Shown one piece after another: positions 51,949 through 61,721 of a stretch of 64,000 nt of DNA. The position numbers were made by a program, and so were the translations under genes. The notes beneath the pieces are model-generated. The model searched no databases. It was not told the DNA's origin and was given only the letters and a program-made list of their open reading frames with translations. Source of the DNA: Escherichia phage ECML-183-2; sequence record OL631481.1; one strand, given 5' to 3'. Positions within the stretch are counted from its first letter, which is position 1. Every line of letters begins with the position of its first letter.

Positions 51949-52743
51949 ATGTCCGAGAAAATCAGCCTGAAAAAACGTCAAGAAAACCTTGCTTTCTCTC
52001 TGAAAAAGAATAAGAACCTGAATGAAGGTAAGATTGTTCTTCGTGTAGCATGTGCTCTAGATATTTCTGGTAGTATGCACGGTCTATATTCTAGTGGGGT
52101 AGTGAGTGATTTTGTAGGTAAACTGCTTCCTTTTGGTATGCTGTTCGACGATAATCAACAAATTGATATGTGGGCCTTCAATACGAGTTCCCAAGAGCTT
52201 ACTCCAGCAACAGCAGACGTTTACGATGACTATGTTGGTAAATGTATGCGTAATGTTCGTATCGGAGGTGGAACAAATTACGCCCCTGTAATGGCAGATA
52301 TCTACGATGAGTATTTTGGCACTGTTACCAAATATATTACCACTAAACAAGTGGTACAAGAGGAGGCTCCAAAGAAAGGCTTCTTTAATCGTCTGCTTGG
52401 TAAAACTGAAACAGTGTCTGTAGAGCGTGAAAAAGTTGTAGCTGTATCTGAACCAGGTGCTGATGTTACCCCTGGTGTTGTATTCTTCCAGACGGATGGT
52501 GAGAATGGTGATCCTAGTGCTGTTCGTCGTCTTATTGAAGAGAATAAGAATAAACCTATTTATTGGTTCATGGTTGGCGTTGGTAATGAGAAGTTTGGCT
52601 TCCTGAAAGAACTGGCAAATGCTTATGATAATGTTGGTTTTATTGGCATTAAAGATTTAGACTTGACAGATTCAGAACTTTATGACAAACTCTTATCTGA
52701 GGAGTTCGGAGAGTGGGTTGTTAAAGTAGGTGCTAAAAAATGA
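51949..52743 (+). CDS. vWA-domain protein (TerY-like)
   Basis: MIDAS motif DISGSM; GGTNYAPVM; sits in ter-like cluster. Confidence 0.65.
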   Translation: MSEKISLKKRQENLAFSLKKNKNLNEGKIVLRVACALDISGSMHGLYSSGVVSDFVGKLLPFGMLFDDNQQIDMWAFNTSSQELTPATADVYDDYVGKCMRNVRIGGGTNYAPVMADIYDEYFGTVTKYITTKQVVQEEAPKKGFFNRLLGKTETVSVEREKVVAVSEPGADVTPGVVFFQTDGENGDPSAVRRLIEENKNKPIYWFMVGVGNEKFGFLKELANAYDNVGFIGIKDLDLTDSELYDKLLSEEFGEWVVKVGAKK

Positions 52744-52988
52744 TCGACGAGCTTGCCTCTCAAGTCGTAGAAAATTATTGGCGCGAGAGAGAAGCTTTCA
52801 TTATGCGCAGTCTCAAAGAGTATTTCATTGGGACTGTGCGAATGGAAGATATTGTAAGTAGAGTAGAGATTCATGTATGGCCCGATTATGAAGAATGGGT
52901 TGACAAAGAAAATGAAAATGCTATAATTCTTCGTATATACAAACCGGAGATAACATTAGGAGGAAGAAGTGTTAAACTTCGAAATTGA
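52740..52988 (+). CDS. hypothetical protein (82 aa)
   Basis: AGGTG RBS. Confidence 0.45.
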   Translation: MIDELASQVVENYWREREAFIMRSLKEYFIGTVRMEDIVSRVEIHVWPDYEEWVDKENENAIILRIYKPEITLGGRSVKLRN

Positions 52989-53238
52989 TGAGCAAAAAGT
53001 AAATAAACGATGCCTTACCATTAAAGATTTGGATGTAGGAGATACTTTCGTCTATGAAAATGCATTTGACGAAAATGGTTTAGACCTTAGTGAAATCATT
53101 GTTTATTTAAAAGTAGATGATGGGGAAAATGATTATTCTGCTGTAGAACTAAACCATCATGCACAATTAGTATCAATCCAAAACACATCTAAGCTTTTGG
53201 AAGTAGAATTGACTGTAACTGGTATTACACTTAAATAA
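52969..53238 (+). CDS. small paralog protein preceding TerD gene
   Basis: GTG start after AGGAGG; paralog of 51669-51947. Confidence 0.45.
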   Translation: MLNFEIDEQKVNKRCLTIKDLDVGDTFVYENAFDENGLDLSEIIVYLKVDDGENDYSAVELNHHAQLVSIQNTSKLLEVELTVTGITLK

Positions 53239-53253
53239 TAGAGGAGACAAAAG

Positions 53254-53856
53254 ATGACTGATAAAATTTCCCTGAAAAAAGGCTCTAGCGAAAAAATTTC
53301 CCTGAAGAAAGTTGCTCCGGCTCTGAAAGAACTGCGCCTGGAATTCTCTTGGAAATCTGATTCTAAACTGGATCTGGATGTAAGTGCACTGGTTTGTCGT
53401 CATAATGCCGCTGGCAATCCTGAAATGCTGTCCGCACGTCATCTGGTTTGCTATGCTAACAAGTTTGATCCTGAACGTTCTACCTTCGCTGGTGACGATG
53501 TTCGTGATGGAACTGGGAGCATGGAGCAGATTGATATTACTCTGGCTAAAATCTCTCCTGATGCACAAGAGATTGCCTTTGTTCTGACCATTGATGATGA
53601 TACAGGTCTGAAACGTTTTGGTCATGCTTCTGAAGGTATGCTTAAAATCTTCGATTCCGAGCGCAATGTGGAAATTCTGGATTTTGACTTCCTGGCTCCT
53701 GAAGTAGCTGGCAACACAATCTGCCACGTGGCTTCCCTGGTTCGTGAAGATGGGGAATGGAAGCTGAAAGCATATGGTGTAGGTAAAGCTGGTCTGGATA
53801 TTTGCGATGTGGTGATGGCCTTCGGTGGTAAAAAAGAATGGTATGAATGTCCATAA
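53254..53856 (+). CDS. TerD-domain protein
   Basis: ISLKK...LDLDVSALV...GDDVRDGTG...FVLTIDD pattern typical of TerD; strongly host-like codon usage (CTG, AAA, GAA). Confidence 0.75.
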   Translation: MTDKISLKKGSSEKISLKKVAPALKELRLEFSWKSDSKLDLDVSALVCRHNAAGNPEMLSARHLVCYANKFDPERSTFAGDDVRDGTGSMEQIDITLAKISPDAQEIAFVLTIDDDTGLKRFGHASEGMLKIFDSERNVEILDFDFLAPEVAGNTICHVASLVREDGEWKLKAYGVGKAGLDICDVVMAFGGKKEWYECP

Positions 53857-53955: not shown

Positions 53956-54477
53956 TTGCTGATAAAAAACTTTGTAACAGTTGCGTTACTATCCTTAACT
54001 GCTTTTACATTTACACCTGTTGTGGCGAAAGCCGAAGCTGCAAACGTAAAAACCGCTAAAGTAGTTCACAAATGTACAAAGCAATATAATGATAAAATTC
54101 TATTAGCTTGTGCAATTTACGCAGAAGGTCGTGGTCTGGGTAAAAAAGGAATGAATGCCGTTGGGAATGTGGTAATCAACAGAAGAAATGATGCCTACTT
54201 CCCTAACACAGTCAAGGGAGTCTTGTTCCAGAAAGGGCAATTCTCATATGCGAAAACTTTTAACGTAACAGAGAAAGATAAGTGGCAGGAAGCAAAAGCA
54301 ATAGCGGAGCGTTTACTTTATTTAGAGAAACATTTTCCTGAATTGCGGTCTGTTTTAGATGTTACTAAAGGTGCTCTATACTTCAAGAAACGGAATATAA
54401 GGACACACTGGGAACGTGATATGCGTCTTGTTTATCGAGATAAAGTGCATGGTTTCTATCTACCAAAGGGGAGTTAA
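53956..54477 (+). CDS. secreted cell-wall hydrolase (SleB-like)
   Basis: TTG start after AAGGAGG; signal peptide; CAIYAEGRG...VVINRRND...FQKGQFSY pattern. Confidence 0.6.
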   Translation: MLIKNFVTVALLSLTAFTFTPVVAKAEAANVKTAKVVHKCTKQYNDKILLACAIYAEGRGLGKKGMNAVGNVVINRRNDAYFPNTVKGVLFQKGQFSYAKTFNVTEKDKWQEAKAIAERLLYLEKHFPELRSVLDVTKGALYFKKRNIRTHWERDMRLVYRDKVHGFYLPKGS

Positions 54478-55178: not shown

Positions 55179-55742
55179 ATGATTTATTATATTACTCCCT
55201 ATCTGACAGGAAATATCGGCAAGGCTATCAATGAAGCCATTGCCGTTCTTCCAGATGATAGTTGGGTGTGTTTAAGAGATACCGATACAATGTTCCTCCT
55301 ACCTGATCAACCATCTATGCTTGAAGAGCTTGTTATGTCAAACCCGCCTTTTGATGTAATAGGTGCAACTTGTAACAGGTTAGGTAGTGGTTATCAGCTT
55401 TTCTCTAACCAAATTAACGATGATCCAGATATTCTAAACCATATAGAATATGCTAAGATTGCAAGAGAATATCATAAAGTGAGTGTTGAAGAAGTTCCTT
55501 TCGGAACACCTCTGGCAGGTTTCTTTTTGCTTTTTAGAAAATCATTGTGGAATGAAATTCCTTTCGAAGAAAAATCTATCCAATTCGACTTAATTTTCTC
55601 TCGCACTTTACATGAAAAAGGAAAGAGGTTAGGATTGATGCGGGGAATGTATCTGTTTCACATTTACAGATTAGGTCAAACAAATCCTCAACGGTCTATA
55701 CATCATTTATTACACTGTCATGATCACAGTAAAACTATTTAG
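55179..55742 (+). CDS. putative glycosyltransferase (GT-A-like)
   Basis: LRDTDTMF DxD-like motif; GGGGAGA RBS. Confidence 0.4.
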   Translation: MIYYITPYLTGNIGKAINEAIAVLPDDSWVCLRDTDTMFLLPDQPSMLEELVMSNPPFDVIGATCNRLGSGYQLFSNQINDDPDILNHIEYAKIAREYHKVSVEEVPFGTPLAGFFLLFRKSLWNEIPFEEKSIQFDLIFSRTLHEKGKRLGLMRGMYLFHIYRLGQTNPQRSIHHLLHCHDHSKTI

Positions 55743-55750
55743 GAGAGAAA

Positions 55751-56434
55751 ATGGAAAATATTAAAATCGGAGTGGGTGTTATCACTGTAGGTGTCCGTCC
55801 GCTTAAAGACTACCTTGTAACAGATCCACGTGCAGATTTTCGAGTATTCAACGATCCAGATCGTAAAGGTGTAGCTTATGCCAGGAATGAACTTATGCAC
55901 CAGTTTTATGAAGAAGGTTATGATTATTGGTTTATTTTTGACGACGATTGCTACCCAGTCATGGAAGGATGGGAAACATACTTTGTAGATCAAGCTGTTT
56001 CTGGAGGATGGGATTTCTTTGGTATGCCGGAGTACTTCAAAGATAAAGTTGTTGGAAGCAAAGGAGAAGTTATTCTCTGGGAACTTGCAATGTGTCAATT
56101 TGCAATGTATTCTCGTGCCGTTGTTGAGAAGATGGGTTATTTCCGCCCTTACACTCACGGTTATGGTTTTGAAGATGCCGAATGGGGACACCGTTTGAAA
56201 GCTGCTGGTTTGAATCATGGTATTCAGGCAACACCTTGTCCGCTTCGTATCATGGCTTATATCCACCCAGACGATGTTTTTGGAAACAATCCTATGCCTT
56301 TTGCTAATCTGACAAAAGAAGAGAAAGAAGCTGCTATTGGGATTAACTGGGAAGAATATAAAGCATCTTTAGAGGATATTAAAAATGGGAAAATCCGAAT
56401 TTCTTATGAGGAGGCACTAGCACATGTCAAATAA
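55751..56434 (+). CDS. glycosyltransferase family 2-like protein
   Basis: FIFDDDCYP (DxD) and GYGFEDAEWGHRL motifs. Confidence 0.6.
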   Translation: MENIKIGVGVITVGVRPLKDYLVTDPRADFRVFNDPDRKGVAYARNELMHQFYEEGYDYWFIFDDDCYPVMEGWETYFVDQAVSGGWDFFGMPEYFKDKVVGSKGEVILWELAMCQFAMYSRAVVEKMGYFRPYTHGYGFEDAEWGHRLKAAGLNHGIQATPCPLRIMAYIHPDDVFGNNPMPFANLTKEEKEAAIGINWEEYKASLEDIKNGKIRISYEEALAHVK

Positions 56435-57371
56435 AAAATGGACTAAACTGAAAATTGATGCAAAACCCCACAGTGGTTGTGATTATCATCGTATTGTTAT
56501 ACCATTTAACAACAATAATTTTCAGCCTAAGAAAGATGTTGTCGTGTTTAACCGTATTCATTCTAAAGGGGCAGAATACGTTCTGTCCCTGAAACGTCAA
56601 GGTGTTAAGATTGTTGTAGATTTAGATGATTTCTACCAACTTAATCCAGAACATTATTTAGCAAGTTTATATGAGTCAAACACTCGTGCTATTGTAGCTA
56701 TGGTTAAGCTTGCCGATGTGGTCATTGTGACTACGGAATATTTGGCATATAAGATCCGTCACTTAAATAGGAATGTTGTTGTAATCCGAAATGCACTTCC
56801 TTTTGATAGCGGACAATTTACTTTGTCAAATGACCGTTCATCCGGTACCCCTATTGTATGGGCTGGAGGTGCTAGTCATGAACCTGATTTACGACTAGTC
56901 TCTAACACTTTTGATGATGAACTTCTTACTATTGCGGGGTATGAAGCTTCGCAGAGTATCACAGGGCAAGAGTGGATTAAGATCCGTAGAAATTTACCAA
57001 ATGCCAAATATAAAGCTGCTGTAAAAGATTTAGATAATTACATGAGTGTTTACGAAAGTCATGCTATTGCTATAGCTCCTTTGGTAGACAATGATTTTAA
57101 TAATTGTAAAAGTAATCTCAAAATCCTTGAAGCTGGGGCAAAAGGTATTCCGATTGTTTGTTCTAAGGTATTACCTTATTTTAACCCTGTAGATGCTCGC
57201 GCTGTTGCTTATGCAGAGAATAAAGCAGAATGGCATTACGAAATTGTTAAGCTTCTTCGCAATCCGAACTATCGGGAAGATCGCGGCTTGTTCTTAGCGG
57301 AACATGTTCGAACACATTATAATCTGGCAGATGCAAACGAATTGCGACGCCAGGTTATTGAAAGTTTGTAG
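56424..57371 (+). CDS. GT-B fold glycosyltransferase (paralog 1)
   Basis: C-terminal NNCKSNLKILEAGAKGIPIV motif; paralog of 57379-58323. Confidence 0.55.
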   Translation: MSNKKWTKLKIDAKPHSGCDYHRIVIPFNNNNFQPKKDVVVFNRIHSKGAEYVLSLKRQGVKIVVDLDDFYQLNPEHYLASLYESNTRAIVAMVKLADVVIVTTEYLAYKIRHLNRNVVVIRNALPFDSGQFTLSNDRSSGTPIVWAGGASHEPDLRLVSNTFDDELLTIAGYEASQSITGQEWIKIRRNLPNAKYKAAVKDLDNYMSVYESHAIAIAPLVDNDFNNCKSNLKILEAGAKGIPIVCSKVLPYFNPVDARAVAYAENKAEWHYEIVKLLRNPNYREDRGLFLAEHVRTHYNLADANELRRQVIESL

Positions 57372-57378
57372 GTGAAGT

Positions 57379-58323
57379 ATGGGACAAATAATTCTTGACA
57401 ATCGTAACGGAATCAATTATAGTGTCTGCGATTTCCATAGGGTATTGCTGCCTTACTCAAGGCAGTTCTCTTCACAACCTAAACACAACGTTTTCGTTTT
57501 TAACGGAGTGCCAACAAAAGGTAAAGAGGGCTTTTTAGCCCTTAAAAACCTAGGTTTTAAAATGGTTATGGATTTGGATGACTCGTTAGTTATTCCAAAA
57601 GGACACATGTTAGAAGGTATTTTTGAATCAGGTATTCGTGAACATTTAAAATGGTTTTTAGAGCACAGCGATCTTGTTACAACTACGACACCTGCTTTGC
57701 AAGTTGAACTTTCACAATACAATGATAATGTGCACATAATCCCTAATGGACTTCCTTACGATGAAGGTCAATTTGTGTTGACCCGTGATCGCTACTCCAA
57801 AACTCCATTAGTCTGGGCTGGAAGTGAAACACATAAACAAGATTTGGCTATCTTGCCCGATTTTGGTAAAGATCTTACAATATGTGGTTTTCGTAGGGAT
57901 TCTGAAGTTTTAAGTAGTCGTGAATGGTCTGTAATCAGAGAAAATGTAGCACCAACTTGTGTTTATGAAGGTGTAAGACCATATGCCAACTACATGGAAT
58001 CTTACGATGGTCATCAAATCAGTCTTGCACCATTGATCGATAACGTGTTTAATAATGCAAAAAGCAATCTTAAAATTCTTGAGGCAGGTGCTAAGGGTTT
58101 ACCTTTAATCTGCTCTCCTCGTGAGAATTATCATACACAAGAGTTTAAAGATTTGTTATTCTTTGCTGAAACACCTTCCGAGTGGAAAGATATTACGGAA
58201 TACTTATTAAGTGCTCCCGATGTTTGCATGGAGAAAGGATTAGCATTAGCTAAGTATGTCAGGACTCATTATCACATTGATGTGTTGAATGAGCGTCGTA
58301 GACTTTTATTTGAGGAGCTATAA
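57379..58323 (+). CDS. GT-B fold glycosyltransferase (paralog 2)
   Basis: NNAKSNLKILEAGAKGLPLI motif; collinear similarity with 56424-57371. Confidence 0.55.
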   Translation: MGQIILDNRNGINYSVCDFHRVLLPYSRQFSSQPKHNVFVFNGVPTKGKEGFLALKNLGFKMVMDLDDSLVIPKGHMLEGIFESGIREHLKWFLEHSDLVTTTTPALQVELSQYNDNVHIIPNGLPYDEGQFVLTRDRYSKTPLVWAGSETHKQDLAILPDFGKDLTICGFRRDSEVLSSREWSVIRENVAPTCVYEGVRPYANYMESYDGHQISLAPLIDNVFNNAKSNLKILEAGAKGLPLICSPRENYHTQEFKDLLFFAETPSEWKDITEYLLSAPDVCMEKGLALAKYVRTHYHIDVLNERRRLLFEEL

Positions 58324-58601
58324 TGATTAACACTTTTGATTTTGAATACACCACTCGTAACGGGAAAGCCTTGGTTGTGGAGGTGGATTACTATTATGAA
58401 GAACCTAATCCACTTTCTCGTGAAAGCGATTGGGATTACCACGGAGGGCTTTTAATTGACGGTATTCGTTTTTATGAAGGATCTACAGAAGTTTTTGAAA
58501 AAGATTTAAATGTAACTGTAGCAGAAATTGCTTTCCAATTTAGAAAGCACATGGAAGAACTAGAAGCAGAATATATGATGGAGACTAACGAACCATTTTA
58601 A
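58323..58601 (+). CDS. hypothetical protein (92 aa)
   Basis: GAGGAG RBS. Confidence 0.5.
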   Translation: MINTFDFEYTTRNGKALVVEVDYYYEEPNPLSRESDWDYHGGLLIDGIRFYEGSTEVFEKDLNVTVAEIAFQFRKHMEELEAEYMMETNEPF

Positions 58602-58613
58602 CAGGAGAACAAA

Positions 58614-60392
58614 GTGTCGCACATTATAACTAAATATGGATTTGATGTTGATCTTAGCAAGGAAGGGCATACAGGTTGTCCGCGCTGCATGAAAAATGGC
58701 AAGGATCGCTCTCGTAATAACCTGATGGTTTATGGATTAGATTCTAATGGAGAGCATAAAGGTGCTAAGTGCTTTGCGTGTGAATACACTATTCCTAGCG
58801 TAGAATGGTTACGAGAAAATGGTGAAGTTTTAGAAGAAGAGGAGGAGATTGTGGGTTCGGAATTTAATAAACAGATTCATCGTAAAATTGTTCAAGAAAC
58901 ATCAACCAACCCACGTGGTTATCGAGGCATTAAAGAAAAAGTTTCATCTTTCTATGGTGTTCGTTATGAATATCGTCAGGAAGGGGATCAGATGGTAGTA
59001 GAAAGTTGTTTATATCCAACTACTATCGGTAAAGAATTGGTTGGTTTTAAGCGTCGTATTCATCCTAAAGATTTCAGTAAACCTATTGGTCAAGTAGGTA
59101 AAGATGTAGATCTTTTTGGACAAATTCGTTTTGCAGACCGTTCTCATACTGTGGTAATTACAGGTGGTGAACACGATGCTCTGGCAGCTTATCAAATGCT
59201 GTCTGAAAACTTGGACAACAAATATGAACTTCCAGCAGTAGTTAGTGGCACAACTGGTGAAACCAGTATGTATAAACAAGTTCAGGCACAATACCCTTTC
59301 TTTGAAAAATTTAAGAAGATTATTGTTTGCATGGATAATGACAAAGCAGGTAATGAGGCATTTGAAAATATTGTTAAGGTGCTGCCTCGTAACAAAGTCT
59401 ACCGTATGCAGATGGATCTTAAGGATGCCAATCAGTATCTGGAAGAAGGTCGTGCAAAAGATTTCGTAAAAGCTTTTTGGAGTGCTCGTCTATACACCCC
59501 AGCAGGTGTTTATGCTTCTAATGTCTTGTATGAAGCTGCATTAGAATGCTTGGAATCCAAGATGATTACCTTGCCTCCTTTTATGCGTGTTGCTGCAAAT
59601 ATGCTGGGTGGTGGTTTAGTAGAGGAAGAGATTACAGTCATCCTGGCAAAGACCAGTATCGGTAAAACTTTGATGGTGAACGAGATCACCAAACATATTA
59701 TCGTTGCACACCCAGAACATACCCTCGGTATTCTGTCATTGGAAGCAACTTATAAGAAATATTCTCGTAACCTGTTGTCCTCGTTCCTGCATATTCCTCT
59801 ACACAGGAAAACACCGGAAGAGAAATTTCAAATCTTGGAAGAGAATAAAGAAAAAATCCTAGATTTTTACGAAAGAGAAGATGGATCACCACGTTTTTAT
59901 GTGTGTGATGATCGTGGAGCAGATGTGGAGTCTATCAAAGAAAAAGTTTTGGAGATGATCATCTATTTTGGAGTAACAATTCTTGTTATCGACCCTTATT
60001 CTGATTTGCTTTCTGGTATGGATGTTCAAGCCCAGGAAGAGTTAGCAACATGGTTGAAGCGCATCATGAAAGAGTATGCTATAACTATTATCGTCATCTC
60101 ACACGTTAAGAAATCGGCTAATGGTGGCAATGAACACTTAACAGAGGACGATGCAATGGGTAGTAGTTTCTTGGCTAAAGGTGCTGGTATTACCTTGGCT
60201 TTGGAACGAGATAAAGCCGCTGAAGACCCTGTAGAACGCAATACGACTCATTGCTTTATCCTAAAAAACCGTGAGTTCTCGGAAACGGGTCCGGCAGGGC
60301 AGTTTTACTATGATATTAGAACTGCAACTCTGCATGACAAAGAGCAGTATTTCAACAATCCTGCTAATTTGCCTACGGATAGCAATTATTAA
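58614..60392 (+). CDS. bifunctional DNA primase-helicase (T7 gp4-like)
   Basis: GTG start; N-terminal CPRC...CFAC zinc ribbon, TOPRIM-like TGGEHDALAA, helicase Walker A AKTSIGKT and Walker B VLVIDPYSD. Confidence 0.8.
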   Translation: MSHIITKYGFDVDLSKEGHTGCPRCMKNGKDRSRNNLMVYGLDSNGEHKGAKCFACEYTIPSVEWLRENGEVLEEEEEIVGSEFNKQIHRKIVQETSTNPRGYRGIKEKVSSFYGVRYEYRQEGDQMVVESCLYPTTIGKELVGFKRRIHPKDFSKPIGQVGKDVDLFGQIRFADRSHTVVITGGEHDALAAYQMLSENLDNKYELPAVVSGTTGETSMYKQVQAQYPFFEKFKKIIVCMDNDKAGNEAFENIVKVLPRNKVYRMQMDLKDANQYLEEGRAKDFVKAFWSARLYTPAGVYASNVLYEAALECLESKMITLPPFMRVAANMLGGGLVEEEITVILAKTSIGKTLMVNEITKHIIVAHPEHTLGILSLEATYKKYSRNLLSSFLHIPLHRKTPEEKFQILEENKEKILDFYEREDGSPRFYVCDDRGADVESIKEKVLEMIIYFGVTILVIDPYSDLLSGMDVQAQEELATWLKRIMKEYAITIIVISHVKKSANGGNEHLTEDDAMGSSFLAKGAGITLALERDKAAEDPVERNTTHCFILKNREFSETGPAGQFYYDIRTATLHDKEQYFNNPANLPTDSNY

Positions 60393-60926: not shown

Positions 60927-61721
60927 TTGAGCAAGTTGAACACACTTGATCAATATTACACTAACCCCGCTTATGCGGGGTTCTTATGTGATAAGATCAA
61001 AGAAATTTTTGGAGAGGAAGCTAACTACGTAGAACCATCTGCGGGAGAAGGAGCTTTCTCTTCTTGTTTTAAAAACATAACTTCTTTTGATATTGACCCT
61101 AAGTTTGAAGATTGTATTGAGGCAGATTTTTTAGCTCAATCTGTTGAGTCTGTTGGTAGTGTAACTGCTTTTGTCGGTAATCCTCCGTTTGGAAAAAATG
61201 CTAGTCTTGCCATTAAGTTCTTTAACCATTGTGCTGAAATGTTGGATAACGAAGGTGGTATTTGTTTTATCTTGCCTCGCACATTTCAAAAAATCTTTTT
61301 TGCACACAAATTAAATCCCCATATGCATCTTCTTTACGAAGAAGAATGTCCAAAAGGATCTTTTATTCTTCATGGAGAACCTTGGGATGTTCCTTGTGTA
61401 TTCCAGATATGGATTAAACGCAATGAGAAGCGTTCTCCTGTTGTTTTAGGAGAGAATCGACTATTCGTATTAGGCAACAGTAAAGACTACGACATAGCCG
61501 TTAGGAGAGCGGGAGCAAGTGCAGGTAAAGTGTTATCAGAAGAAGATTCTTTATCTGAAGCATCTACCTATTTTTTAAAAGCCTTGACTTCTGATCTTAA
61601 AACGCGTATCATTGAGGCTTACCCGTTACTTAAAGCTGAAGCTAGTAAAACTGCGGGAGTAAGAAGTTTAAGTTTAAAAGAACTTCAGTGGGTTCTGGAG
61701 AACATTAGAAAGGAGGAATAG
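60927..61721 (+). CDS. DNA methyltransferase (amino-methyltransferase with NPPF motif, probably N6-adenine)
   Basis: TTG start after AAGGAGG; motif I EPSAGEGAF and motif IV NPPF. Confidence 0.7.
   Translation: MSKLNTLDQYYTNPAYAGFLCDKIKEIFGEEANYVEPSAGEGAFSSCFKNITSFDIDPKFEDCIEADFLAQSVESVGSVTAFVGNPPFGKNASLAIKFFNHCAEMLDNEGGICFILPRTFQKIFFAHKLNPHMHLLYEEECPKGSFILHGEPWDVPCVFQIWIKRNEKRSPVVLGENRLFVLGNSKDYDIAVRRAGASAGKVLSEEDSLSEASTYFLKALTSDLKTRIIEAYPLLKAEASKTAGVRSLSLKELQWVLENIRKEE

Follow-up and report, generated by a model that had tools for sequence, protein, structure and literature searches.

A glycosyltransferase cassette of Escherichia phage ECML-183-2 as a candidate virion glycosylation system

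Four consecutive glycosyltransferase (GT) genes, here termed GT1 to GT4, are located on the + strand of Escherichia phage ECML-183-2 at positions 55179–58323 of the 64,000-nucleotide stretch of sequence record OL631481.1 that was analysed (hereafter the window). The four enzymes may well glycosylate virion proteins: supplied by a rhamnose pathway of the phage, they would assemble an O-linked oligosaccharide, with C-terminal Ser or Thr residues as the most plausible sites. The genes themselves are known, since all four open reading frames (ORF1 to ORF4) are already annotated as ‘glycosyltransferase’ in RefSeq and have been linked in the literature to a ‘dTDP glycosylation machinery’, and the bare observation is thus not new. 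What would be new is the function proposed for them, in which virions of phages with Gram-negative hosts are glycosylated by enzymes non-homologous to those of mycobacteriophages. The window belongs to a Phapecoctavirus, a phAPEC8-like E. coli myovirus of the subfamily Stephanstirmvirinae; in a nucleotide comparison the 3.1-kb region of the four genes had 97–98 % identity to approximately 64 sequenced Phapecoctavirus genomes and 60–80 % identity to six more distant records.

Under this proposal, two GT-A enzymes and two paralogous GT4-like GT-B enzymes would form a soluble cytoplasmic glycosylation line that adds successive residues to give a short O-linked oligosaccharide on the phage’s own virion proteins. 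The donors would probably include dTDP-L-rhamnose or a related dTDP-6-deoxyhexose, supplied by the rmlABCD operon of the phage and topped up by host enzymes of the RmlA/B type. The acceptor would most likely be a Ser/Thr hydroxyl at the very C-terminal end of structural proteins that are abundant and exposed on the surface, the candidates being the head-decoration protein, the colanic-acid-degrading tailspike and possibly the major capsid protein (…KLTTA). In this phage, the acceptor would be a virion protein and rhamnose would be part of the glycan, and the benefit might be a particle shielded from antibodies, proteases or binding to host or decoy.

C-terminal Ser/Thr tags are statistically associated with GT cassettes in other phages. 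As a control, approximately 120 viral contigs were collected by capsid homology alone, from two capsid families, and then scored for homologs of GT1, GT2 and the GT-B enzymes. GT genes were present only at loci where the capsid protein ends in Ser or Thr. The two-by-two comparison of capsid end (Ser/Thr or not) with GT genes (present or not) gave counts of 11/3/0/31 for 95 % clusters (Fisher p = 3.6e-8) and 7/1/0/13 for 80 % clusters (Fisher p = 6.9e-5). All capsids of the first family (L037 type; L numbers refer to contigs and loci) that end in Thr (APTT, AAT, QAT or HPTT) and have enough flanking sequence were followed immediately downstream by GT2, GT-B and GT1 genes; approximately 65 homologs with 58–65 % identity end in Pro and have no GT gene within 10 kb on either side. 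For the second family (L007 type), GT genes occurred only with capsids ending TT, GS or TS, and the GS/TS group carries a two-domain GT of 485–500 aa. This two-domain GT consists, in L177, L178, L182, L194 and L196, of an N-terminal Glycos_transf_2 domain and a domain resembling the ORF2 family, and is followed by an unknown protein of approximately 200 aa; the protease-capsid fusions on these contigs end …GS or …TS, the …GS dipeptide being as in the glycosylated capsids of mycobacteriophages.

The tag is also found on other structural proteins of the same genomes. Capsid and tail-tube proteins that are non-homologous to each other have a common tag in an Enterobacter prophage (capsid …ANTTT, tail tube …ANPTT), in L037 (capsid …AAPTT, major tail protein …GGPTT), in Cellulophaga phage phi12:1 (capsid …VSGT, tail protein …TVGT) and in one further genome (HPTT and WTTT). 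Major tail proteins of cassette-bearing phages end …PTT or …TTT, and the one cassette-less homolog detected ends …PTTP. Similar ends were observed independently for a phrog_584-type major tail protein (L021, …EPTT), a probable head protein (L040, …NPTT) and a phrog_617-type major head protein representing a third capsid family (L227, …GSTT), which is accompanied by neck proteins ending …GSTS and …EQTT.

The cassette moves between phages as a module and, in other phages, is linked to head and packaging genes. Homologs of GT1, GT2 and the GT-B enzymes, with 38–46 % identity, are clustered in unrelated temperate phages, and ‘bacterial’ GT-B homologs proved to be prophage genes. The gene order in Enterobacter huaxiensis is GT1 homolog (44 %), dehydratase, GT2 homolog (38 %), GT-B (46 %), HNH, TerS, TerL, protease-capsid and portal, and that in Pseudomonas silvicola is GT2 homolog (43 %), GT-B, TerS, TerL, portal and capsid. 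The GT-B family is large, with at least 578 relatives detected by a pattern scan of IMG/VR and 823 clusters at 50 % identity (E ≤ 1e-30) in a library of 1.8 billion proteins. Among 49 dereplicated loci, the GT-B gene had a GT2-family gene, its commonest partner across phages, beside it in 29, and a GT1-family gene was present in 12. When the dereplicated loci outside the large Stephanstirmvirinae-type myoviruses were considered, at least 28 of 41 had a gene verified as belonging to packaging, head or tail (for terminase, portal, capsid or a tail protein), and 23 of these had it within eight genes.

The exact position relative to these genes varies. Cassettes were found immediately upstream of HNH/TerS/TerL (L006, L007, L020 and marine phages of approximately 33 kb), upstream of the terminase (Streptomyces phage Zuko), directly after the portal gene (L035, together with a PLOD-type protein-GT domain, 99.9 bits), between portal and prohead protease (phi12:1), directly after the major capsid gene (L037 type), between head and neck genes (a Paraburkholderia prophage) and upstream of the tail sheath gene (L022). 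In phi12:1 a GT1-type domain is fused to a TOD1/MUCI70 GT-like domain and lies beside a Methyltransf_24 gene. An earlier, sequence-only reading of the window had used the position of the genes among replication genes as an argument for their function; this position is not general, as homologous cassettes mostly adjoin terminase, portal and capsid genes. A GT-B homolog was also located outside prophages, on chromosomes of Trinickia symbiotica, Trinickia sp. and Burkholderia dolosa (L009, L228, L229 and L225), where it adjoins an inverse-autotransporter/invasin-type surface protein of approximately 1100 aa and an unknown protein of approximately 555 aa. This gene order hints that the GT-B family may also glycosylate bacterial surface proteins.

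The last genes of the rhamnose pathway are co-inherited with the cassette. The rmlABCD operon lies outside the window, and rmlD was found in essentially the same set of approximately 140 Stephanstirmvirinae genomes as the cassette. In phage ESCO37, rmlA and rmlB have been lost and rmlC, rmlD and the cassette have been kept. Because dTDP-4-keto-6-deoxyglucose is available from the host, what the phage itself has to provide would seem to be the two final steps leading to dTDP-L-rhamnose. Genes for related sugars are found with homologous cassettes: a dTDP-glucose-4,6-dehydratase-like gene (TIGR01181, 180 bits) lies inside the cassette of the Enterobacter prophage and a similar gene inside that of contig L018, a sugar-nucleotide epimerase gene precedes the GT-B homolog of Streptomyces phage Zuko, and the cassette of contig L035 includes a Methyltransf_24 enzyme with a weak rhamnosyl-O-methyltransferase match. 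The number of GT genes was compared with rml presence as a clue to which enzyme uses rhamnose, and this provided no discrimination; the Klebsiella group of Stephanstirmvirinae has rmlD, scored per group, and some of its members carry a reduced cassette of GT1 and one GT-B gene.

The four ORFs are closely packed, with stops and starts that overlap or nearly abut, and each was matched over its full length to a PHROGs family annotated as ‘glycosyltransferase’. GT1 (55179–55742, 187 aa) is a minimal GT-A enzyme (phrog_14179, E = 8.5e-113) and GT2 (55751–56434, 227 aa) is of the GT-A type (phrog_2456, E = 9e-79). GT3 (56424–57371, 315 aa) is a GT-B, GT4-like enzyme and GT4 (57379–58323, 314 aa) is its paralog, both belonging to phrog_7162 (E = 1.6e-148 and E = 4.9e-145, respectively) and having 41 % identity over 303 aa (BLASTP, E = 1e-77). 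The sequence-only reading had described two GT-A and two paralogous GT-B enzymes in succession and was right in this; the motifs that it quoted are present in ORF1 (RDTDTMF), ORF2 (FIFDDDCYP and GYGFEDAEWGHRL), ORF3 (KSNLKILEAGAKGIP) and ORF4 (KSNLKILEAGAKGLP). In alignments of metagenomic and viral homologs, RDxDT (DxD-type) was nearly invariant across 32 ORF1 homologs, FDDD and YGxED were invariant across 25 ORF2 homologs, and DxDD, H152, K229 and E236 were invariant across 83 homologs of ORF3 and ORF4. This conservation indicates that the motifs are functionally meaningful, and GT4 is probably active because all family-invariant residues are retained.

Structure prediction, which had been suggested as a check, agreed with the assignment of folds for ORF1 and ORF3. 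The AlphaFold model of ORF1 (mean per-residue confidence, pLDDT, of 93) is a single minimal GT-A domain, for which the top Foldseek matches in the PDB were all GT-A enzymes but distant, with template modelling (TM) scores of approximately 0.5 (LH3, ppGalNAc-T2, COLGALT1, RmlT and SpsA). The model of ORF3 (pLDDT 95.7) has a GT-B fold, with PglA, BshA, GlgM, MshA, TarM and SdgB as top matches (E ~1e-9, TM 0.58–0.65), and its top 50 PDB fold matches were GT-B enzymes, mostly of the GT4 type and including PimB'. LpxB was not among the top fold matches, and the LpxB-like label of ‘putative disaccharide synthase’, under which the GT-B genes appear in the BASEL phage collection, was rejected. Family searches gave weak matches, below the Pfam cutoffs for ORF2 (TAGT, Glycos_transf_2 and Glyco_transf_7C) and ORF3 (Glyco_trans_1_4 and Glyco_trans_1_2) and just above for ORF4 (Glyco_trans_1_2, 25.2 bits with a cutoff of 25). 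ORF1 had no match in Pfam, NCBIfam or PDB sequences, NCBIfam gave nothing for the four GTs, and PDB sequences yielded nothing meaningful for any of the three families, whether searched with single sequences or with profiles. No transmembrane segment was detected in the four GTs (maximum 19-residue Kyte–Doolittle mean ≤ 1.65), and their isoelectric points (pI) and hydropathy did not discriminate between acceptors. Judged by its model, ORF1 is a GT-A-type glycosyltransferase, and so, by its motifs, is the unrelated ORF2; ORF3 is, as modelled, a GT4-like GT-B enzyme. The three families are distinct lineages without a characterised close relative.

To identify candidate acceptors in the lineage of the window, for which the structural genes lie outside the window, virion proteins were taken from relatives. 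Among the 33 virion proteins of phage Schickermooser, a Ser or Thr end was found on two only: …KVVFTS on the head-decoration protein and …VDVPTT on the tailspike that degrades colanic acid. The tag of the decoration protein consists of six additional residues, which are conserved across three genera (Phapecoctavirus, phi92-like ESCO9 and a Klebsiella phage) and are missing from the one Vequintavirus examined, the cassette-less JES2013. No Vequintavirus records were present among the GT matches listed, and GT-B matches were found in 142 phage records compared with 1205 records for capsid homologs. The tail sheath of ESCO9 (L219, 9118–10524) has an 11-residue Ser-rich C-terminal extension (…SQNSNSSTVSS) that is lacking from the Phapecoctavirus sheath; this Ser-rich end is possibly another candidate glycan acceptor, differing between the two genera.

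Several observations weigh against virion glycosylation as the function of the cassette. The tag in the lineage of the window is suggestive but weaker than in the temperate phages, with a major capsid protein that ends in Ala (…KLTTA), a tail tube that ends …LTIQ and a single Vequintavirus as the cassette-less comparison for the decoration tag. The tag hypothesis was formed post hoc on the same kind of data, the cassette-positive capsids of each family may trace back to a small number of independent gains, inspection of cassette-less contigs was confined to ±10 kb on either side of the capsid gene, and some cassette-bearing prophages (Pseudomonas L006 type) have capsids without a Ser/Thr end. 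In the genome of the window itself, the cassette is flanked by an endolysin/TerD block and a primase-helicase gene, away from the structural genes. Accessory genes also tend to accumulate near terminase genes in general. A scan for generic promoter and terminator consensus matches, from which expression timing is not derivable, found a perfect sigma-70-like promoter match upstream of the cassette at 52900 and no + strand terminator-like site between the cassette and the primase-helicase gene. As no such site intervenes, the cassette is probably co-transcribed with replication genes, a timing that would suit other roles equally well. The glycosylation of Stephanstirmvirinae virion proteins is a prediction, and the parallel with mycobacteriophages is an analogy of organisation because the enzymes are non-homologous.

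Hypermodification of DNA, which the sequence-only reading had favoured, would have the GTs move rhamnose or other sugars onto a modified base of the phage DNA and so block restriction or CRISPR. The idea was not new, as rhamnosylation of hydroxymethylated bases had already been proposed by Olsen et al. (2020, PMC7552041), and it is contradicted by four lines of evidence and is considered highly improbable; a sparse, sequence-specific modification would be compatible with the restriction data. The cassette is co-directional, and probably co-transcribed, with genes for the primase-helicase (58614–60392), an N6-adenine DNA methyltransferase-like protein (60927–61721) and DNA polymerase, and the rml operon sits among nucleotide-metabolism genes. 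GT3 is basic (pI 8.7), as is the T4 beta-glucosyltransferase, and ORF2 has a weak local match to TAGT (19.3 bits) and one to the PHROGs family of the T-even beta-glucosyl-hydroxymethylcytosine alpha-glucosyltransferase (E = 7.5e-6 over 39 residues), but these ORF2 matches span the generic DxD region only. Alignment of the 83-sequence GT-B family profile with hhalign gave probabilities of 7.6 % for the T4 beta-glucosyltransferase and 1.3 % for the alpha-glucosyltransferase, and T4 glucosyltransferases were absent among the top 50 PDB fold matches of ORF3. No hydroxymethylase is visible in the window, as had been noted before. The search was extended to the rest of the genome by reading the full annotation of the complete, 98 %-identical genome of Schickermooser (NC_048196), in which rmlABCD is complete and which also encodes several DNA methyltransferases, a MazG-like pyrophosphohydrolase and a ThyX-like protein; no ThyA-type hydroxymethylase, TET/JBP, DpdA, 5-hydroxymethyldeoxyuridine kinase or other enzyme of base hypermodification was annotated or found in it. 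A Pfam scan of ten candidates from this genome (the ThyX-like gene and its neighbour, the Dcm-like neighbourhood, and the MazG-like and methyltransferase genes) detected only Thy1, NT5C and PRA-PH, and no TET_JBP or thymidylate-synthase family. The Dcm-annotated gene had no methyltransferase domain by Pfam and no TET/JBP dioxygenase among its neighbours. Published experiments on relatives carry the most weight against the idea. The same four-gene cassette, in the same order and with 66–72 % amino acid identity, is present in the phi92-like genus, including the BASEL phages PaulScherrer, JohannJBalmer and EmilieFrey, and the phi92-like BASEL phages, which carry both cassette and rml genes, were described as ‘exceptionally susceptible’ to restriction-modification ‘despite a putative dTDP glycosylation machinery’ (PMC8594841). 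The phi92-like phages are also hit by Druantia III and ARMADA II, which spare the hypermodified T-even-type phages (Straboviridae). HincII patterns were obtained in the ESCO collection from Phapecoctavirus and phi92-like genomes, and only three T-even-type phages were refractory (PMC10269720), showing that this enzyme cuts Phapecoctavirus DNA but not T-even-type DNA. Homologous cassettes are, moreover, carried by small temperate phages without nucleotide-metabolism genes.

Two further explanations keep the GTs away from DNA but assign them an acceptor other than the virion. Remodelling of the host envelope, by addition of rhamnose-containing branches to lipid-linked intermediates of the lipopolysaccharide (LPS) core, the O-unit or the enterobacterial common antigen (ECA), is unlikely. 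Its purpose would be to mask the receptors of the phage (ECA and the first outer-core glucose), resulting in superinfection exclusion or in progeny that are not trapped on debris. ECA synthesis and the rhamnose pathway have dTDP-4-keto-6-deoxyglucose as a common intermediate, which fits such a role, and ECA and LPS core glucose do serve as receptors of these phages (PMC8594841). GT4-like GT-B enzymes commonly use lipid-linked or cell-wall acceptors (examples from the top fold matches are PglA, PimB' and TarM), exclusion would be well served by expression together with replication genes, probably in the early or middle phase, and the ‘putative disaccharide synthase’ label of the BASEL annotators is in keeping with this role. 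However, the three GT families occur together in phages whose hosts are Enterobacteriaceae, Pseudomonas, Paraburkholderia and Bacteroidota, with the GT-B family also in Streptomyces phages, and a host-independent acceptor is more parsimonious because the envelope glycans of those hosts have little in common. No flippase, GtrA/B/C-type protein or other membrane component accompanies the GTs, which have no transmembrane segments themselves, and the prophage cassettes are embedded in the late structural operon and are not independently expressed conversion morons. Nor would envelope remodelling explain why GT genes are associated with capsid and tail proteins that have a Ser/Thr tag at the C-terminus. 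An acceptor of another kind, which might be a host protein (e.g. EarP-like rhamnosylation of a translation factor), a non-structural phage protein, a tRNA base or a small molecule, is quite unlikely. Such an acceptor could have a link to neighbouring Ter/PRTase metabolite genes, the cassette lying a few genes downstream of a TerD, vWA-TerF, TelA, TerC and PRTase cluster, but Ter genes were unlinked to the cassette in every other phage lineage examined. Small-molecule GTs (BshA, MshA and GlgM) and protein GTs (SdgB and Gtf3) are among the structural neighbours, and the invasin/intimin-type surface protein beside the chromosomal Trinickia and Burkholderia homologs makes non-virion contexts possible. 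Yet four transferases imply an oligosaccharide and not a single regulatory sugar, neither EarP nor any other known host-protein GT stood out as specifically similar among the PDB fold matches, and the C-terminal tag statistics favour virion proteins.

The genes around the cassette place it at the edge of the replication block and not inside it, as the sequence-only reading had it. Downstream, the primase-helicase gene (DnaB_C and Toprim domains by Pfam) does follow, but not directly, since a conserved ORF of 92 aa intervenes; upstream, the neighbours are not replication genes but those for a SleB/CwlJ-type endolysin candidate (53956–54477, + strand; Pfam Hydrolase_2, 64 bits, with a hydrophobic N-terminal segment), TerD (53254–53856, Pfam 98.9 bits) and a vWA-TerF-like protein (51949–52743). 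The intervening ORF (58323–58601, + strand) encodes an acidic protein (pI 4.2; phrog_4240, E = 6e-33, of unknown function) and is translationally coupled to GT4 through an ATGA overlap. It is located 3' of the GT-B gene or genes in all Stephanstirmvirinae-type loci and is absent from the cassettes of other phages. It may be an accessory factor particular to this lineage or a small protein without relation to the GTs, and its membership of the cassette is uncertain.

Other features of the region were recorded alongside. The tellurite-resistance-like set extends over 51949–53856 and further upstream in the window and over 108169–118054 in NC_048196, where TelA, TerC, a PRTase_3 protein and a HAD hydrolase are annotated within it; this corresponds to a ‘Ter-linked nucleoside-like metabolite’ neighbourhood in a virulent phage. 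The Ter/PRTase neighbourhood was ruled out as a functional partner of the cassette, given the absence of linkage in other lineages. Endolysins of the SleB/CwlJ type are better known from spore-cortex lysis, and the candidate is far from the annotated spanin genes of the relative. The N6-adenine methyltransferase-like protein (+ strand, 264 aa) belongs to phrog_5172 (E = 1.7e-110), with a match to phrog_799 ‘DNA methyltransferase’ (E = 1e-10) and a weak Eco57I match in Pfam. At least three further DNA methyltransferases are annotated in NC_048196, yet the tested phi92-like phages of the sister genus were reported to be restriction-sensitive. GC skew is negative over 1–31 kb and positive over 32–64 kb, and the sign change near 31–32 kb matches the point of divergent transcription in the relative (approximately 130.3–130.4 kb in NC_048196). 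Several records labelled as Campylobacter, Acinetobacter or Pseudomonas phages (MG065650, MG065645, OP562383, OR584014 and others) are 80–98 % identical in the region to E. coli Phapecoctavirus or phi92-like phages, and these host labels probably reflect contamination or mis-assignment and not true host range.

If the four GTs do glycosylate virion proteins, the puzzling rhamnose pathway of a restriction-sensitive group of phages would be explained, and a GT cassette together with a C-terminal Ser/Thr tag would provide a simple signature for glycosylated virions in metagenomes. Phapecoctavirus and phi92-like phages are frequent in therapeutic cocktails, and glycosylation would also matter directly for their pharmacokinetics and immunogenicity. 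A wider claim is put forward more tentatively: a mobile module of GT1, GT2 and GT-B, often with dTDP-6-deoxyhexose and sugar-methyltransferase genes, could O-glycosylate the extreme C-terminal Ser/Thr of capsid, decoration, tail-tube, neck and spike proteins in many phages of Gram-negative hosts, the therapeutic Phapecoctavirus and phi92-like coliphages included. Virion glycosylation would then be a general trait, convergent with the mycobacteriophage system and predictable from a C-terminal ‘TT/GS’ tag. In the literature collection searched, these GTs were not the subject of any experimental study, and glycosylated virions were not reported for any phage of a Gram-negative host.

Of the known phage systems, GtrABC O-antigen conversion likewise consists of phage-encoded glycosylation of a carbohydrate-bearing surface structure, but it needs a membrane flippase, a bactoprenol GT and a GT-C enzyme and is expressed in lysogens from genes beside integrase/attP, whereas the cassette proteins described here are soluble. 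The four GTs had no Gtr-type Pfam match, the phage is virulent, and the prophage homologs are located in the late operon. The alpha- and beta-glucosyltransferases of T4 (GT72 and GT63) are phage-encoded, soluble and of the GT-B fold, like ORF3 and ORF4. However, they have no specific homology to the GT-B family of the cassette by the hhalign comparison given above, and the T4 beta-glucosyltransferase gene, located among replication genes, adjoins that for dCMP hydroxymethylase, a partner not found in the lineage of the window. The TET-associated glycosyltransferases (TAGT, PF20691) belong to TET/5mC phages; the match of ORF2 to this family is below the 27.5-bit cutoff and limited to residues 32–68, around the DxD motif, and the cassette is unlinked to the Dcm-annotated gene, with TET/JBP not found. 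Giant viruses provide a precedent of another kind, as the A064R rhamnosyltransferases of chlorovirus PBCV-1 and the rhamnose/viosamine pathway of Mimivirus show that a 6-deoxyhexose pathway and cytoplasmic GTs can glycosylate virion proteins without the host secretory machinery. Giant-virus GT-B proteins were among the fold neighbours in BFVD; these are eukaryotic viruses with different enzymes and attachment chemistry, with homology to the cassette seen at the level of the fold only.

To our knowledge, mycobacteriophages are the only phages for which glycosylated particles have been documented; their glycans blunt recognition by antibodies, and the discoverers of the trait reportedly saw little evidence for it in other phages. 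Freeman et al., in 2023, reportedly placed the mycobacteriophage glycans at the protein C-terminus. The GT cassettes of Che8 and Corndog have been demonstrated experimentally to glycosylate capsid and tail-tube subunits (PMC12363180, PMC10877033). Other phage GT cassettes are not known to have a proven function. No homology of the present GTs to Che8 gp108–110 or Corndog gp36–38 was detected by BLASTP, phmmer or family HMM searches beyond generic GT-A similarity, such as that of GT2 to the N-terminal domain of Che8 gp108 (23 % over 147 aa, E = 0.001 in a seven-sequence database). The cassette described here differs from those of mycobacteriophages in its GT-B enzymes, its link to dTDP-6-deoxyhexose genes and its Gram-negative hosts, and in the virulent myovirus of the window it lies away from the structural genes, with the decoration protein and tailspike as candidate acceptors in place of capsid and tube. 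The likeness is one of organisation; the mycobacteriophage cassettes (Che8, Corndog and Myrna) are also multi-gene sets of soluble GTs that contain a GT-A enzyme of approximately 200–230 aa and sometimes a sugar methyltransferase. Both these cassettes and the homologous cassettes of most other phages in this study adjoin packaging or head genes, Che8 gp108–110 at the right cos end, where the HNH gene follows, and Corndog gp36–38 just upstream of the major head gene. Capsid and major tail protein of Che8 both end …GS, as does the Corndog capsid, and the candidate targets in the cassette-bearing phages described here, capsid and tail proteins, end …TT, …GT, …GS or …TS.

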